A stretch of DNA of 64,000 bases. Origin: Candidatus Bipolaricaulota bacterium (GTDB lineage: Bacteria; Bipolaricaulota; Bipolaricaulia; UBA7950; UBA9294). The stretch is from NCBI GenBank assembly GCA_028278555.1, contig JANQEA010000035.1, positions 152,089 through 216,088 of the forward strand, written 5' to 3'. The translations under genes and the position numbers were made by a program. Below the pieces are notes generated by a model. That model did not search any database and had not been told where the DNA came from. It saw only the letters and a list, made by a program, of their open reading frames with translations. Positions 1,112 through 60,602 of this stretch are shown piece after piece (positions within the stretch are counted from its first letter, which is position 1; the number at the start of each line of letters is the position of its first letter).

Positions 1112-2101
1112 ATGAAGGCGTTCGTCACAGGCGGAACCGGGTTCCTGGGAGCCAACGTCGTCCGCGATCTGCTCGAACGGAACATCGGCGTCCGCGCCCT
1201 CTGCCGGCCGACGCCGTCGCGCGGAAACCTCGAGGGCCTCGACGTCGAGATCGTCGAGGGGGATCTTCGTGATGTGCAGTCGCTCCGCCGCGGGATGGCC
1301 GGCTGCGAGCTCGTCTTCCACGTCGGCGCCCTCTACTCGTTCTGGGTCCGACCTCCCGGTCTGATCTACGAGGTCAACGTCGATGGAACGCGGAACGTCT
1401 TCGACGCCGCCCTCGAAGAGGGGATCGCGCGGGTCGTCTACACGAGCTCGGTCGCGGCACTCGGCCTCCGCGACAATGGACATCCGGCCGACGAGACGAC
1501 CGCGACGTCACTCGCCGAGGTCGTCGGCGACTACAAGAAGACGAAGTACCTCGCCGAGCAGATCGCGCTCGAGTACAGCGCGAAGCTCCCGATCGTCATC
1601 GTCAATCCGAGCTTCCCGGTCGGACCGTGGGACGCGAAGCCGACTCCGACCGGCCAGACGATCGTCGACTTCCTCAACCGGAAGATGCCCGCCTACCTCG
1701 ATACCGGGATGAACGTCGTCGACGCCCAGGACGTCGCTCTCGGCCACTGGCTGGCCCTCGAGAAGGGGACGGTCGGCGAACGGTACATCCTCGGTGGCGA
1801 AAACGTGACGATGAAGGGGCTGTTGGATCTGCTCGCCGAGATCACCGGGTTGCCATCACCTAGAATCAGGCTCCCGTACACGCCGATCCTCGCGATGTCC
1901 TACCTAAACGCCGGGTTCTGCAAGCTCTTTCCTCGGATCACCCCGCGGATGACGCCGGAGACGATCCGGATGTCGAGCCACTACATGTACTTCGATCCGA
2001 CCAAGGCCGTCCGAGAGCTCGGTTTCCCGCAGACCCCTGCCAAGGACGCCCTCGCCAAGGCCGTCGACTGGTATGGGGAGAATGGGTACGTGAAGAACTG
2101 A
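1112..2101 (+). CDS. NAD-dependent epimerase/dehydratase (extended SDR; HpnA / dihydroflavonol-reductase-like)
   Basis: ATG at 1112 follows the SD GGAGG at 1101-1105. N-terminus is MKAFVTGGTGFLGANVV (Rossmann GxxGxxG) and a YxxxK motif (YKKTK) is present. The track ORF 752-2101 carries a spurious Arg-rich N-terminal extension. Confidence 0.85.
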   Translation: MKAFVTGGTGFLGANVVRDLLERNIGVRALCRPTPSRGNLEGLDVEIVEGDLRDVQSLRRGMAGCELVFHVGALYSFWVRPPGLIYEVNVDGTRNVFDAALEEGIARVVYTSSVAALGLRDNGHPADETTATSLAEVVGDYKKTKYLAEQIALEYSAKLPIVIVNPSFPVGPWDAKPTPTGQTIVDFLNRKMPAYLDTGMNVVDAQDVALGHWLALEKGTVGERYILGGENVTMKGLLDLLAEITGLPSPRIRLPYTPILAMSYLNAGFCKLFPRITPRMTPETIRMSSHYMYFDPTKAVRELGFPQTPAKDALAKAVDWYGENGYVKN

Positions 2102-2250
2102 GAGGCGGAAGTATTCGACGCGTGGCAGCTGTGAAACATCGACTTTCCACTCTCAGCGCTACGCTCACTCGACTCGCAGCGCCTGGAACACCGTCAGATC
2201 AACACTGTCTCTTCGAGCAGCGGCTTCTTGACTCTGATCGAAAGGATCAA

Positions 2251-3579
2251 CTACGGCAGCTTCTTGAGAATGGCCTTGATCTTCGAATCCAGCTTGTTCT
2301 TGAGAGTAGTGATGTTCGGGTAGAACACCACCGCGAAGTCCTTGATGTCGAAATGGAGCATCGTTCCTTCTCTTGCAGTAAAGATGACTCTCTTGTTGAC
2401 GCCGTGAGTGTATCCGATTTCGTAATAGACATTGGGTCTTTCGTGCGTGAGATCCGCAATGACGAATTGCGCTGAATCTATCGATTCCATGATCTTGTCA
2501 GTTATCTTCTCCGTATCCTCAACATCATCGACCCTGTAGGCCTTCAGATCGTTCTCTTCACATACCTCCTTGATCGCAGCGTGAACATCGTCCAGGCCTG
2601 GATCTTCCTTTGTCATGGCCATGATGATGAACACCTCTCTCGATAGCTGCGGTATCCCCGCACCGGTTTCTGCAGATGCCACAACTCCACCTCCCAATTC
2701 CCGATACAGATTAGCCAGCTTCTCCTGCTCAGCTGCAAGTTGGTGAGGTGTCTTCTTGCTTGAGTGCAAATCCTCGACCAGACTTGCAAGCCGAGCATAG
2801 CTCTGAAGCCATGCCTCTGCGATGAACCCAATCCAACGATTGTGATCCTCCACTTCGTCTACAGCGAGCAGTTCCTCGTAGTACTCAGCTCTGTTTCCCA
2901 GAAAGAAGCGATCGGTACCAATGAGCGTATGGTCGAGTCTGTATCCACCAATGAGCATAGCATAATTCGCTAGTAGACGCGCAACACGCCCGTTTCCATC
3001 TAGAAACGGGTGGATTCGGGCAATCCCGTAGTGCACAACAGCTGAGACTACCACCGGGTTAGCATCGGGATTGGATTTCACCCAGTGCAGCATAGCCTGG
3101 AGAGCAAGCGAAACTGTCTCTGGCTTCGGCGGAGTGTAGAGGATCTTGCGGTCCGGCATTCTGATAACGTAATTCTGTACTTCACGCAGCTTTCCTCCGC
3201 CGCTTCCGGGAGTGAGGCGTCGGTGGGCCTCCTGGATGAGCGGAAGACTGATGGGCGCGTCTTCTGCCGCACAATCCATTAGGTATTCGATCGCCTCTGC
3301 GTAAGCTTGAATCTCGTGTCCAGATACACCAGCATCGGGCGTGCGGATACCCCGGGGGATGCCCAGAGGGGTGTCTATCCCTGTAGCCGATAGGAACTCA
3401 CCAGATTGAAGAATGCTGATAATCTCGTCCCGGTTCTTGGAAATCGACAGTACTGTTTGAACGTAGGTGTAGTGACGCGTGATTCCCTGTAGCTTTGAGA
3501 CTAGATCAGGAGTGTAGCTGAACTCGATGCTGAAACTGTCAGTCATCTTGGACTCTGCGTTTCTCTCAACGACAGACAT
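2251..3579 (-). CDS. Fic-domain protein (predicted AMPylase / NMP-transferase) fused to a C-terminal TIR / nucleoside-2-deoxyribosyltransferase-like Rossmannoid domain
   Basis: The canonical Fic motif HPFLDGNGRVAR lies at aa 190-201 (nt 2977-3012). A coiled linker follows at aa ~270-314. The C-terminal ~125 aa read VFIIMAM...AYRVDDV...FVIADLTHERPNVYYEIGYTHGVNKRVIF...HFDI. This matches the hallmark pattern of TIR-like (COG4271/PF10137-type) and NDT-like domains (beta1 VFIxM, then DLT..PNV..E.G.A.G..K.VI). The start is either ATG 3579 or ATG 3546. Confidence 0.8.
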   Translation of the reverse strand: MSVVERNAESKMTDSFSIEFSYTPDLVSKLQGITRHYTYVQTVLSISKNRDEIISILQSGEFLSATGIDTPLGIPRGIRTPDAGVSGHEIQAYAEAIEYLMDCAAEDAPISLPLIQEAHRRLTPGSGGGKLREVQNYVIRMPDRKILYTPPKPETVSLALQAMLHWVKSNPDANPVVVSAVVHYGIARIHPFLDGNGRVARLLANYAMLIGGYRLDHTLIGTDRFFLGNRAEYYEELLAVDEVEDHNRWIGFIAEAWLQSYARLASLVEDLHSSKKTPHQLAAEQEKLANLYRELGGGVVASAETGAGIPQLSREVFIIMAMTKEDPGLDDVHAAIKEVCEENDLKAYRVDDVEDTEKITDKIMESIDSAQFVIADLTHERPNVYYEIGYTHGVNKRVIFTAREGTMLHFDIKDFAVVFYPNITTLKNKLDSKIKAILKKLP

Positions 3580-3601
3580 GGTGAGACATCAGACACGCCA
3601 T
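3566..3601 (-). CDS. Possible 11-codon upstream ORF (MACLMSHHVCR) overlapping the Fic start codon
   Basis: The only strong SD in the 286-nt gap (GGGAGG at 3607-3612, 5-nt spacer) precedes ATG 3601-3599, not the Fic ATG. The uORF ends at TGA 3568-3566 and spans the ATG at 3579. Speculative. Confidence 0.2.
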   Translation of the reverse strand: MACLMSHHVCR

Positions 3602-3865
3602 TCGAGCCTCCCTTCGCTGAACCCAGACTGCCGCCACATGTTCTGACTCTCTCCCATACCAGATTACCACTGGAACTCGCGCAGTGTAGGTTACCATTGT
3701 GGAGTACGTCGATCAATGCTCCGCCAGCGAGCCAACTTCCCCCCACCTCTTCAGCCTTGCTTGAGAATCGCAATCCCATCTCCCACAGGCCGCAGCGGCC
3801 TCTGAACGGCGCGGCGTATCTCGTACTACTCGTTGATGCCGTGCAGACAGAATGCCGCCTCCAGT

Positions 3866-4309
3866 TCATCTCCTACGGAGCGGGTGCTTCCGCGCCTTCA
3901 GTGTCAGCAGACCGAACGCAATGAGCCCTGCTATTAAGGACGCGATGAATGAGAACTCCAGCTCCGGCCATGGTTTTGCTTCAAGCTGAAGACCACAGAA
4001 CGGAGCAATGAATCCGACGGCGATAGCAGCTGCAATGCCCAGGCTCAAACTCGCCATCGCACGTGTCAGAAGGTCACGCGCAAGCGATCTTCCGATTTGC
4101 AGGGCGGCCAGACCAACCAGTGCGCCAACAAGCAGATCCCAGCTGTCGTAGGTGCCAGGCGCATACTCGACTGCAAGTAACGCAGCTAGAAGGGTAGCTC
4201 CCGCCGCTCCACGGCCGACGGTAGTTTCTTGAGTCGCGTTTCTCACTAGTACTCCTCCTCTCGCGATCCTCTCCCACACGCGCATCGGCATCAATGATTT
4301 CTGAGCCAA
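3866..4309 (-). CDS. Small integral membrane protein (about 4 predicted TM helices), function unknown
   Basis: 147-aa ORF with four hydrophobic stretches (ATLLAALLAVEYA, WDLLVGALVGLAALQIG, LSLGIAAAIAVGFIAPFCGL, FSFIASLIAGLIAFGLLTL) and a basic C-terminal tail. It is on the same strand as, and upstream of, the Fic fusion gene, inside the low-GC stretch. No family was recognised. Confidence 0.5.
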   Translation of the reverse strand: MAQKSLMPMRVWERIARGGVLVRNATQETTVGRGAAGATLLAALLAVEYAPGTYDSWDLLVGALVGLAALQIGRSLARDLLTRAMASLSLGIAAAIAVGFIAPFCGLQLEAKPWPELEFSFIASLIAGLIAFGLLTLKARKHPLRRR

Positions 4310-4375
4310 TCCTGCGGATGAGGACTTGCTCGATCAAGAGCGACTACCATCCCGCTCGGAGCATCCCTGCAAGAT

Positions 4376-4773
4376 TCACTCGAACACGTTGCCAGTGACG
4401 TTCCCTGCGGCATCGGTTTCTAGCAGTCCTTTGGACGAATCCAGGAGTACGAGTTCATTCTCTCACGAGTCGCGAACCACGACGCAACGACCGATCCGGA
4501 TGTCGAACGGTTGGGCAACTGTCGTACCGCCCGCTTCCGTGAAGCAGACAGCGGCCTCGTCGGCGTTCGATACCTTTAGGTCGATCTCGGGCGGCTTGGG
4601 CTCCGTGTGAAGCACGATCTCCGTTTCGTCCTTCCCTAGCGCTAGCCAACCTCATCTTCGGTCCGCCAAAGGAGTTCCAGCCTAAGCTTGTCTCGGTAGA
4701 ACGACAGACCCGATTCGAGGTCGTCCACGGACAGCTGCACACAATCCACCTTCTCGATGAGCGGTTCGGTCAC
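4376..4773 (-). pseudogene. Decayed glyoxalase/bleomycin-resistance/VOC-family gene (frameshift plus in-frame stop)
   Basis: SD GGAGGA plus GTG 4773 opens VTEPLIEKVDCVQLSVDDLESGLSFYRDKLRLELLWRTEDEVG, which hits TAG near 4640. The VOC-like sequence continues in another frame (WLALGKDETEIVLHTEPKPPEIDLKVSNADEAAVCFTEAGGTTVAQPFDIRIGRCVVVRDS). TGA at 4463-4465 then interrupts the DPxGN-type motif, and the frame continues ENELVLLDSSKG... to TGA 4376-4378. Confidence 0.6.
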
Positions 4774-4790
4774 GGTTTCCTCCGGAGTCT

Positions 4791-6170
4791 CTACCTCTTC
4801 AGCGCAGCCTTGACCAGCTGCCGACCTAGATCCCAGAGTCCGCCGCGGAGCTTGTGCGCTTTGTCGAGGGTCGCGTCAATGGCTGAGAGCGCGAAGTCCA
4901 CATCCTCGTCCGAGAGGATCAGCGGCGGGAGGAACTTGATGATGTTCACCCGGTGGCCCGACACCTGGGTGAGGAGCCGGTGGTCGCGCATCAGACCCAT
5001 GACAACGAGCTGGGCGAAGAGCCCGGCCTGCATCGTTTCGAGCGCCTTCCACGCCGCCTTCAGCTTGAGCGACTTCGGTGGCCCGAACTCCATCCCGATC
5101 ATCAGTCCCTTCCCGCGGACGTCGTGGAGCATCTCGTACCGCGACTGCATGTCACGGAGGCCGGCGAGGAGCCGCTCCCCCTGCCGAGCGGCATTCTCGA
5201 TCAGGTTCTCCGACTCCAGCACTTCGAGCGTCGCTAGGCCTGCCCCCATCGCCAGCTCGTTCATCCCGAACGTGTTCGAGTGGACGACGCACCGCTCGAG
5301 TCCGGAGAACGTCTTCTTGTGCAGGTCGCGGCGGATCAGGATCGCGCCGACCGGGATGAACCCGCCGGAGAGGGCCTTCGAGATCGGAACGATGTCCGGT
5401 TCGAGGCCCCAATGCTCGCCGCCGAAGAAGCGGCCGGTCCGGCCGAGTCCGGCCTGGATCTCGTCGACGATGAAGACCGTCCCGTGCTTCCGGCAGAGCC
5501 GCTGCGCCTCGGGGAGGTACTCGTCGTCCGGCATGTAGACGCCCTTTCCCTGGATCGGCTCGGCGATGAACGCGGCCACATCCGCGCGCTCAAGCTCGCG
5601 CTTGAGCGCGTTCAGGTCGTTCAACGGGACGCCCGTGGAGGGAAGGAGCTGTCCGAACCCCTCGCGGAAGTGCGGGCTCCCGTTCACCGAGAGGGCCCCG
5701 AGGGTGAGTCCATGGAACGCGTGATCGATGTAGACGAACCGGTCACGCTTCGTCGCGGCACGGGAGAACTTCAGCGATCCCTCGACCGCTTCGGCCCCGG
5801 AGTTGGTGAAGAAGACAGCGTCGAGCCCAGGGTAGCTACGCTGGGCCCGTTCGGTCAGTCGCTCGGCGAGGAGGCCGGCGAGGAGCGGACAGTCCATCTG
5901 GATCAGGTTTGGCCGATCGAGGTCGAGCAGTTGGTGAAGGGTCTCCTTCAGGACCGGATGGCTCCGGCCGACCTGGTAGACGCCGTAGCCGGAGAGGAAG
6001 TCGAGGTACCGATTCCCACCGTCGTCGTAGAGGTACGCCCCCTCGCCGCGTGTGTAGGCTACGTCGTAGTCGATGATCTGCAGGACCCTCGCCAACGCCG
6101 GATTGACGTGGCGCTTGTGCAATTCGATTTGTTCCCCGAGCCGTTCTTCGATCAGCTTCGCGATCTCCAT
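4791..6170 (-). CDS. Class-III PLP-dependent aminotransferase (acetylornithine/GABA/putrescine aminotransferase family)
   Basis: 459 aa with the family motifs SGAEAVE, DEIQAGLGRTGRFF and SKALSGG (PLP lysine). Confidence 0.9.
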   Translation of the reverse strand: MEIAKLIEERLGEQIELHKRHVNPALARVLQIIDYDVAYTRGEGAYLYDDGGNRYLDFLSGYGVYQVGRSHPVLKETLHQLLDLDRPNLIQMDCPLLAGLLAERLTERAQRSYPGLDAVFFTNSGAEAVEGSLKFSRAATKRDRFVYIDHAFHGLTLGALSVNGSPHFREGFGQLLPSTGVPLNDLNALKRELERADVAAFIAEPIQGKGVYMPDDEYLPEAQRLCRKHGTVFIVDEIQAGLGRTGRFFGGEHWGLEPDIVPISKALSGGFIPVGAILIRRDLHKKTFSGLERCVVHSNTFGMNELAMGAGLATLEVLESENLIENAARQGERLLAGLRDMQSRYEMLHDVRGKGLMIGMEFGPPKSLKLKAAWKALETMQAGLFAQLVVMGLMRDHRLLTQVSGHRVNIIKFLPPLILSDEDVDFALSAIDATLDKAHKLRGGLWDLGRQLVKAALKR

Positions 6171-60440: not shown

Positions 60441-60516
60441 TGGTGGGTGGTACAGGGCTCGAACCTGTGACCTCATGCACGTCAAGCATGCGCTCTCCCA
60501 GCTGAGCTAACCACCC
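60441..60516 (-). tRNA. tRNA-Val (anticodon GAC), CCA encoded
   Basis: The reverse complement GGGTGGTTAGCTCAGCTGGGAGAGCGCATGCTTGACGTGCATGAGGTCACAGGTTCGAGCCCTGTACCACCCACCA folds as a cloverleaf. It has a 7-bp acceptor, a GCTC/GAGC D-stem, a CATGC/GCATG anticodon stem with loop TTGACGT, and an ACAGG/CCTGT T-stem with a TTCGAGC loop. Confidence 0.95.
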
Positions 60517-60527
60517 ATCTCGTGCTC

Positions 60528-60602
60528 TGGAGGCGGCGACCGGATTCGAACCGGTGAATCAGGGATTTGCAGTCCCTTGCCTTACCGCTTGGCTACGCCG
60601 CC
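60528..60602 (-). tRNA. tRNA-Cys (anticodon GCA), CCA encoded
   Basis: The reverse complement GGCGGCGTAGCCAAGCGGTAAGGCAAGGGACTGCAAATCCCTGATTCACCGGTTCGAATCCGGTCGCCGCCTCCA has an AGGGA/TCCCT anticodon stem with loop CTGCAAA, a T-loop TTCGAAT and the discriminator U typical of tRNA-Cys. Confidence 0.95.

Follow-up and report, generated by a model that had tools for sequence, protein, structure and literature searches.

A Fic domain fused to an NDT/TIR-like domain, encoded in a variable cargo slot of a Candidatus Bipolaricaulota genome

The window analysed here, a stretch of 64,000 nucleotides from a Candidatus Bipolaricaulota bacterium (assembly GCA_028278555.1, contig JANQEA010000035.1, positions 152,089 to 216,088 of the forward strand; positions below are those of the window), carries a gene in which a Fic AMP-transferase domain is fused to a C-terminal domain of the nucleoside 2-deoxyribosyltransferase (NDT)/TIR superfamily, hereafter the C-domain. 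We consider it rather probable that the product works on its own as a conflict protein, of the toxin or abortive-infection kind and acquired horizontally, in which a glycosidase is the effector. Proteins of a family found in defence islands share the C-domain as their constant C-terminal part, whereas their N-terminal domains are interchangeable and number at least 21. The fusion lacks both the canonical brake of Fic proteins and the regulatory C-terminal domain of SoFic, a stand-alone Fic defence protein (10.1101/2022.05.11.491447). Its parts and design logic are known, but no account of this extremely rare fusion was found in the searchable literature, and as a system the wider C-domain family seems not to have been characterised. 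The gene and the segments of its product are as follows.

2251-3579, minus strand: Fic-NDT/TIR-like fusion gene, 442 residues, ATG start, TAG stop at 2251-2253 (open reading frame list, domain scans and orthologue alignment)
3370-3408 (residues 58-70), minus strand: degenerate inhibitory-helix region QSGEFLSATGIDT (alignments and regular expression)
2743-3321 (residues 87-279), minus strand: Fic (Fido) AMP-transferase domain, SoFic-like (PADLOC SoFic 5.9e-38)
2977-3012 (residues 190-201), minus strand: Fic catalytic motif HPFLDGNGRVAR, intact (direct reading)
2644-2742 (residues 280-312), minus strand: linker, one helix and then a Gly/Ala/Ser-rich segment of low confidence (model of the Fic half)
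2254-2643 (residues 313-442), minus strand: C-terminal Rossmannoid domain of the NDT/TIR superfamily
2404-2442 (residues 380-392), minus strand: signature element ERPNVYYEIGYTH with the predicted nucleophile E387 at 2419-2421 (conservation and alignment)

The open reading frame (ORF), the position of the Fic motif, the C-terminal pattern, a dip in GC content and an upstream hydrophobic ORF had been reported in a first-pass annotation of the window, and all were confirmed. An alternative start at M12 (3544-3546) may be the true one rather than that at 3579, because the orthologues start at the M12 position. The GC content of the fusion gene is 51.6%, against 63.3% for the window, and that of the region from about 2000 to 4750 is 0.50-0.58, against 0.64-0.67 in both flanks.

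The C-terminal segment reads VFIIMAM...RVDD...FVIADLTHERPNVYYEIGYTHGVNKRVIF...HFDI, and E387 lies within ...NVYYEIGY.... Modelled alone with a 117-sequence alignment, the C-domain forms a five-stranded alpha/beta structure (predicted local distance difference test score, pLDDT, 89.4; predicted template modelling score, pTM, 0.83). Fold comparison of this model gave scores of 14.3 for the CMP hydrolase MilB, 13.5 and 13.3 for nucleoside 2-deoxyribosyltransferases, 13.3 for the TIR domain of TIRAP, 12.4 for Cap12 TIR-STING, 11.9 for TIR-SAVED, 11.8 for the TIR domain of SARM1 and 11.4 for Rcl/DNPH1. The modelled fold is clearly that of the NDT/TIR superfamily and fits its NDT and TIR branches alike: it has the NDT-type flavodoxin-like arrangement, in which the nucleophile Glu opens the helix after strand 3, and it also has the features of a TIR fold. 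PF05014 was the top Pfam family for the domain, with 91 of the 117 family members matching at E<=1e-3 (best 3e-7). The 'Effector TIR' model that PADLOC uses for the cyclic-oligonucleotide-based antiphage signalling system (CBASS) matched all 117 members (up to 8e-18) and the C-domain of the fusion itself with 9.5e-13. The PADLOC ThsB model gave the latter 0.011, and a Pfam scan found no match to it for PF13676 or PF01582. The assignment of the domain to TIR-like and NDT-like proteins, made in the first-pass annotation by eye, is thus favoured both by the profiles and by the fold model.

A profile built from the C-domain only aligned ADLTHERPNVYYEIGYAHA to AEVTQPSLGVGYELGRAVA of DNPH1 and to ADLS...GTAFELGYAAA of the Leishmania NDT (E about 0.01), with E387 placed on the Glu of 'GYELG' in DNPH1 and of 'AFELGYA' in the NDT. 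This alignment, marginal alone, agrees with the fold and puts E387 on the catalytic nucleophile Glu, so that the Glu of YYEIG, for which such a role had been proposed, is the predicted catalytic residue. Across the 117-sequence alignment F317, M320, D376, N383, E387, G389, F410 and D411 are invariant, and ERPNVYYEIGYAH and H409 are nearly so, a pattern of conservation expected of an active site rather than of a passive scaffold. The first-strand motif of the domain is F-I-x-M, which looks more TIR-like than the Gly-rich loop that we take NDT and DNPH1 to have at their first strand.

Relatives of the C-domain were found 505 times in 185,579 species (one genome per species), in many bacterial phyla and several archaeal lineages, and 2.9 million viral contigs contained 3 matches. 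The domain is nearly always C-terminal in its proteins. The N-terminal regions of 191 such proteins fell into 21 unrelated clusters, comprising several uncharacterised domains (65, 28, 16 and 12 members), Walker-A P-loop kinases (23), SLOG-like Rossmannoid domains (12), RuvB-like AAA+ domains (10), HEAT repeats, Hcp and others; only 5 proteins have Fic at this place. No neighbouring gene family recurred across 77 genome loci of the C-domain, which points to single-gene modules and not to parts of CBASS, Pycsar or Thoeris operons. The neighbourhoods nevertheless contain defence genes, namely Drt8 (4e-155), PDC-M30A, SAVED-TIR, the methylation-associated defence system MADS and AriA nearby, and DrmD (1.8e-274), GajB (5e-227), pAgo (1e-165), viperin and methyltransferases a few genes further away. 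PADLOC holds no system model for the C-domain family and registers only the domain-level likeness to a CBASS effector. For the window gene itself, a CBASS, Pycsar or Thoeris operon was considered and rejected, as no CD-NTase, cyclase or ThsA/ThsB pair lies in its slot (described below) and the 77 loci offer no recurrent partner.

Some genomes carry several C-domain paralogues: one Arenicellales chromosome has three, two of which are adjacent and convergent (L066; also L065), and L028 has two. The PADLOC mad8 model matches the N-termini of 22 of the 117 family members, and the MADS genes mad2, mad3 and mad8 recur in the surrounding islands (neighbourhoods L002-L081), a hint of a link to methylation-associated defence.

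The Fic half matched the Pfam Fic family (PF02661) with 1.4e-19 over residues 110-207 (71.1 bits against a cut-off of 24). Its best solved relatives in a PDB profile search were SoFic and FICD (about 5e-14), and Foldseek with a model of this half returned the same two proteins (FICD 2e-6, SoFic 3e-6; probability 1.00 for both). In the model, whose overall pLDDT is 72, the core is confident, residues 278-294 form a helix and residues 296-310 are a segment of pLDDT <50. The intact motif and the helical linker described in the first-pass annotation are therefore present, the former by direct reading at residues 190-201 and the latter in the model. The motif conforms to the HxFx(D/E)GNGRxxR pattern of the Fic/Fido superfamily, and its core (H190, P191-N196, R198 and R201) is invariant in 92 aligned Fic proteins, as are F226, Y233 and Y234. 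The alignment shows that the Fic half keeps the catalytic and ATP-binding residues H190, R198, R201 and Y233/Y234, and AMPylation is its predicted activity. The nearest sequences beyond its own small clade were SoFic-like class II proteins (Fic_N, Fic and winged helix-turn-helix, wHTH) at ~30-36% identity. These relatives carry PF11972/wHTH tails, in place of which the fusion has the linker and the NDT/TIR-like domain. The PADLOC SoFic match spans only profile positions 91-282 of 361, short of a full-length SoFic, and the NCBIfam SoFic equivalog model reached 69.6 bits against a cut-off of 550. Because this cut-off is missed by far, the Fic half is classed on sequence grounds as a relative of SoFic and not as a SoFic member.

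None of the four full-length fusion proteins contains a match to the regular expression [ST]xxxE[GN] at any position; in nearly all SoFic-like relatives, SSQIEG stands at the aligned place. In the cleaner alignment the 'EG' of SSQIEG is a two-column gap in the fusion clade, which instead keeps Q-[ST]-x-E-x-L-S-x-x-G-I-D-T at residues 58-70. Regular expression and alignment thus confirm the loss of the canonical auto-inhibition motif that had been suspected by eye, and the segment 'ATGIDT' noted in its place is real: it occupies residues 65-70, and G67-I68-D69-T70 is invariant in the fusion clade. Residues 61-83 have pLDDT <50 in the AlphaFold model of the Fic half. A trans-acting antitoxin bearing the inhibitory motif was rejected as a candidate, since no neighbouring small ORF in the orthologue loci supplies (S/T)xxxE(G/N). 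Likewise, tblastn, tblastx and a motif scan found no conserved small antitoxin ORF or flank common to the window and the orthologue loci. Engel and colleagues reportedly observed in 2012 that AMPylation is de-repressed in class I-III Fic proteins when the inhibitory Glu is lost.

These features of the Fic half bear on a different division of labour, which we regard as unlikely. Here Fic would be the sole toxin, and the C-domain would be a nucleotide-binding regulator or sensor that replaces the winged-helix domain of SoFic and the lost Glu, for instance by controlling ATP binding until it has captured a nucleotide signal. The C-terminal domain of SoFic is indeed needed for toxicity and moves upon ATP binding (PMC12249575). 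In the fusion clade, moreover, the loss of the canonical motif calls for some other control, and none is offered by a trans-acting antitoxin ORF. The C-domain family as a whole argues otherwise. E387, D376, N383 and H409-F410-D411 are invariant or nearly so family-wide, and among defence models the domain scores best against an effector, the CBASS effector TIR. Furthermore, most N-terminal partners are non-toxins (HEAT repeats, helical domains, P-loop NTPases, Hcp), which leaves only the C-domain as effector of those proteins.

The fusion was rarely encountered. Of the 1.84 billion cluster representatives covered by an exhaustive HMMER search, only P0002 (56% identity) and P0004 (80% fragment) matched in both halves, all other top matches covering residues ~300-442 only, and among about 260 retrieved C-domain proteins the Fic motif occurs only in P0001-P0004 and P0121. 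A metagenome scan with the fusion alignment gave, among the matches listed, only ordinary Fic proteins (~30% identity, with a generic IHPFLDGN) and no new fusions. The searchable literature yielded no description of a Fic and NDT/TIR fusion; together with the two clusters in 1.84 billion representatives, this bears out the earlier impression that the architecture is undescribed.

The orthologue P0003 (locus L001) lies ~1.5 kb from a ThsB-type TIR gene (PF08937, 6.1e-18) on the opposite strand, with an HNH fragment also present, and downstream of P0121 (locus L082) come an unknown gene, an AbiV-family HEPN gene (3.3e-22) and a gene for a 946-residue Ppl-like ATPase (2.4e-22). The two contigs, of 33-39% GC, are 91% identical in DNA over the fusion gene, and they probably show two sides of one island. 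A repeat element of ~70 bp lies downstream of the orthologue, once in L001 (4120-4187) and in two copies in L082 (1714-1783 and 1956-2022).

In the window, the fusion gene occupies a slot of 2.7 kb between two convergent genes, with the following features.

2102-4790, no strand: variable cargo slot, 54.6% GC, at which flank identity ends and whose contents are unshared
1115-2101, plus strand: epimerase, convergent flank of the slot
4791-6170, minus strand: aminotransferase, convergent flank of the slot
3866-4309, minus strand: 147-residue membrane protein with about four hydrophobic segments, only sub-threshold family matches
4440-4790, minus strand: frameshifted glyoxalase/VOC pseudogene with stops (six-frame reading)

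The repaired VOC translation matched PF00903 with 2.9e-5 and 24.9 bits, above the cut-off of 20.6. Named relatives of the aminotransferase at 65-77% identity occur in Candidatus Bipolaricaulota only. Seven related loci, with aminotransferases 80-88% identical, have the same flanks, the aminotransferase converging on an epimerase-metallophosphoesterase pair. The DNA identity of the flanks to these relatives (77-82%) ends at both stop codons, at 2091/2106 and 4791/4799 of the window. The slot of the window shares nothing with the slots of the relatives, which contain the following.

L176: nothing; the two flanking genes overlap at their ends
L170: TIR_2 protein (2.6e-24; PADLOC PDC-S66 2.8e-21) and unknown ORFs
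L172: HEPN pEK499_p136 (1.7e-8) and a small ORF
L173: HEPN pEK499_p136, a small ORF and HicA
L174: HicA (1.2e-12), a weak HicB-like ORF and HEPN pEK499_p136
L175: PDDEXK_3 and small ORFs
L177: PDDEXK_3, HicA and small ORFs

The gap between aminotransferase and epimerase is an integration hotspot for toxin and defence cargo in a Bipolaricaulota-like lineage: cargo is present or absent at a fixed site, and other defence or toxin genes stand there as alternatives. Decayed duplicates of the 3' ends of the flanking genes lie inside several of the relatives' slots and point to repeated cassette insertion. A place among conserved syntenic core genes would, according to the first-pass annotation, have told against a conflict module; the fusion gene has no such place, given that the slot is hypervariable, empty in L176 and filled with TIR, HEPN, HicA or PDDEXK genes in the six other loci.

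An exact 15-nucleotide direct repeat, CGATCCGGATGTCGA, at 1962-1976 and 4492-4506 brackets the membrane protein and fusion genes. A repeat of this kind arose in 7 of 2000 shuffles; the copies lie in the frames of the epimerase and the VOC pseudogene and show no extended homology, and the repeat may be an att-like core or due to chance. A scan of the slot found no RNA elements, and the sole tRNAs of the window, a tRNA-Val(GAC) and tRNA-Cys(GCA) pair at 60441-60602 on the minus strand, are far from the fusion gene.

The pseudogene in the same slot would suit the view that the fusion gene is a decaying or silent passenger, or else a housekeeping nucleotide-salvage or regulatory enzyme with a Fic domain, a view to which we assign very little probability. 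Consistent with it, no clear Shine-Dalgarno sequence precedes either candidate start, no sigma-70/promoter-like or terminator-like signals stood out in the slot, and the relatives NDT and DNPH1 work in metabolism. Against it stand the unbroken frame of 442 codons and the catalytic motifs of both halves, whose retention at 56% identity between hosts of very different GC content speaks for purifying selection. A housekeeping gene would not be expected to be so extremely rare, horizontally transferred, set in islands and absent from nearly all relatives.

No homologue of the 147-residue membrane protein was found near the Fic-fusion orthologues, and it was therefore rejected as a component of the system. 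Having no conserved counterpart, it is best seen as fellow cargo of the slot that adds no support, and the argument for a toxin-type system that the first-pass annotation drew from this neighbour (a '4-TM' protein, with four transmembrane segments) falls away.

Two further proteins of the family suggest that the C-domain is a portable toxin module. One of them, P0044, joins Hcp of the type VI secretion system (T6SS; PF05638 1.6e-22) to the same C-domain in an 'evolved Hcp' layout, and in the other, P0348, the C-domain is duplicated in tandem. Layouts like that of P0044 typify T6SS cargo, secreted effectors often contain Fic domains (IbpA, Bep and AnkX were among the structural matches), and a small membrane protein is encoded upstream of the fusion gene at 3866-4309. 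On this evidence the fusion could be a secreted or inter-bacterial toxin of the polymorphic-toxin or T6SS type, with the membrane protein as immunity or export factor; we think this the least likely of the readings. Domain scans and orthologue alignment revealed no trafficking domain, signal peptide-like N-terminus or repeat region in the fusion protein, and secretion-system genes do not recur in the 77 C-domain neighbourhoods. The membrane protein, besides being unconserved beside the orthologues, is encoded upstream, not at the downstream position usual for immunity genes. The alternative cargo of the slot, HicA, HEPN, TIR and PDDEXK, is of the intracellular toxin-antitoxin (TA) or defence type.

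Several points weigh against the preferred reading, a stand-alone conflict protein with a glycosidase effector. Toxicity and phage defence are what we infer for the protein, and the NADase or glycosidase activity of the C-domain is likewise a prediction, for which the substrate may be NAD+, deoxynucleoside or nucleoside monophosphates (dNMP/NMP), or DNA. The individual profile scores of the domain are low: 21.6 bits against PF05014, under the cut-off of 28.8; E 0.094 against PF10137, under the Pfam threshold; and marginal PDB profile E-values of about 0.01. The structure models represent the Fic half and the C-domain each by itself. In the N-terminal region, which is modelled with low confidence, D69 or E61 may provide a non-canonical inhibition. 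The immediate flanks in the window are housekeeping genes, and the window contains no integrase. Finally, the distal-gene control for the family neighbourhoods lay within the same islands and gives no true background, so that we claim the presence of defence genes and not a measured enrichment.

The first-pass annotation had proposed a self-contained toxin or defence module that combines two effector chemistries. The slot and the defence-gene context speak for such a module; the pairing of two effector chemistries is one reading only, the N-terminus in this family being usually non-enzymatic or an NTPase. In the mechanism that we favour, the C-domain would be the killing module, an N-glycosidase that depletes NAD+, as do Cap12/PycTIR and the NDT-like effector of retron-Ec86, or alternatively cleaves a nucleotide, as do DNPH1 and MilB. 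Enzymes of the NDT/TIR superfamily generally need dimers or filaments, and the C-domain would probably be active only once assembled as a dimer or oligomer. The Fic half sits where sensor or regulatory domains sit in the rest of the family. The toxicity of SoFic is controlled by its C-terminal domain and by dimerisation, and the dimer, formed via the first helix, is needed for toxicity (PMC12249575); by analogy, the Fic half could provide assembly and trigger recognition. It may thus contribute dimerisation, recognition of a trigger, or AMPylation, whether of a target or of its own chain, and would then be a regulator and possibly a second effector. In the end, the infected or stressed cell would cease to grow.

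A bolder version of this idea has, in our estimate, a small chance of being right. It holds that the fusion represents a new regulatory class of Fic proteins, in which a Fic domain devoid of the inhibitory Glu and an NDT/TIR N-glycosidase, linked in cis, form a two-enzyme, single-chain immune switch, and, more broadly, that the C-domain defines an unnamed single-gene defence family (>500 species, at least 21 partners) whose N-termini form a catalogue of phage sensors. In such a switch, Fic might auto-AMPylate or free the glycosidase domain upon sensing a phage factor, or a nucleotide product or substrate held by the C-domain might gate AMPylation.

If it is active, the protein would unite two well-studied immune chemistries in one chain, the AMPylation of proteins and the cleavage of N-glycosidic bonds in NAD+ or nucleotides, and it would exemplify a way to control a Fic enzyme without the canonical inhibitory glutamate. 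The C-domain family could be a sizeable uncharacterised single-gene defence family, whose naturally exchanged sensors would serve studies of mechanism. The slot between aminotransferase and epimerase, for its part, is a clean and small hotspot in the little-studied phylum Bipolaricaulota that could be mined for further cargo.

Among known systems, SoFic (a class II Fic AMP-transferase, PDB 3EQX/3ZCN) belongs by HMM to the same Fic subfamily and shares with the fusion the catalytic motif, the ATP-site Tyr and Arg and the single-gene layout in defence islands. Identity between the two is ~20-36%, however, and the fusion is without SxxxEG, without wHTH and without an AS1-like small downstream gene. 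The arrangement of SoFic with AS1, or of a type II TA pair of class I Fic and antitoxin, requires an adjacent conserved small gene, and none accompanies the fusion. The TIR NADases of the Cap12/PycTIR group (PF10137; CBASS TIR-STING and TIR-SAVED, Pycsar) resemble the C-domain in the Glu element after the third strand. They differ in that the fusion lacks a CD-NTase or cyclase gene and a STING, SAVED or cNMP-binding sensor domain, and here the domain sits C-terminal to swappable N-terminal domains. The nucleophile Glu and PF05014 link the C-domain to the NDT superfamily (nucleoside 2-deoxyribosyltransferase, DNPH1/Rcl, MilB/BcmB), whose enzymes are stand-alone and metabolic, whereas the fusion family lies in a defence-island context. 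The NDT-like effector of retron-Ec86 (Eco1) depletes NAD+ (reviewed in PMC13276650) and, likened here by its description, sets a precedent for an NDT-like fold as NADase in abortive infection. Retron effectors are restrained by reverse transcriptase (RT) and its multicopy single-stranded DNA (msDNA), whereas neither RT nor non-coding RNA was found with the fusion. A like organisation is seen in the fusions of NDT domains to Abi N-terminal domains, predicted to be toxins by Anantharaman et al. 2013 (PMC3710099). Their partners are helical domains of the AbiJ-NTD type, and a catalytically intact Fic among them is reported neither in that paper nor in the literature found. These Abi-type NDT/TIR fusions follow the same logic as the family described here, in which one enzymatic toxin domain at the C-terminus stands behind many different N-termini in single-gene defence loci.

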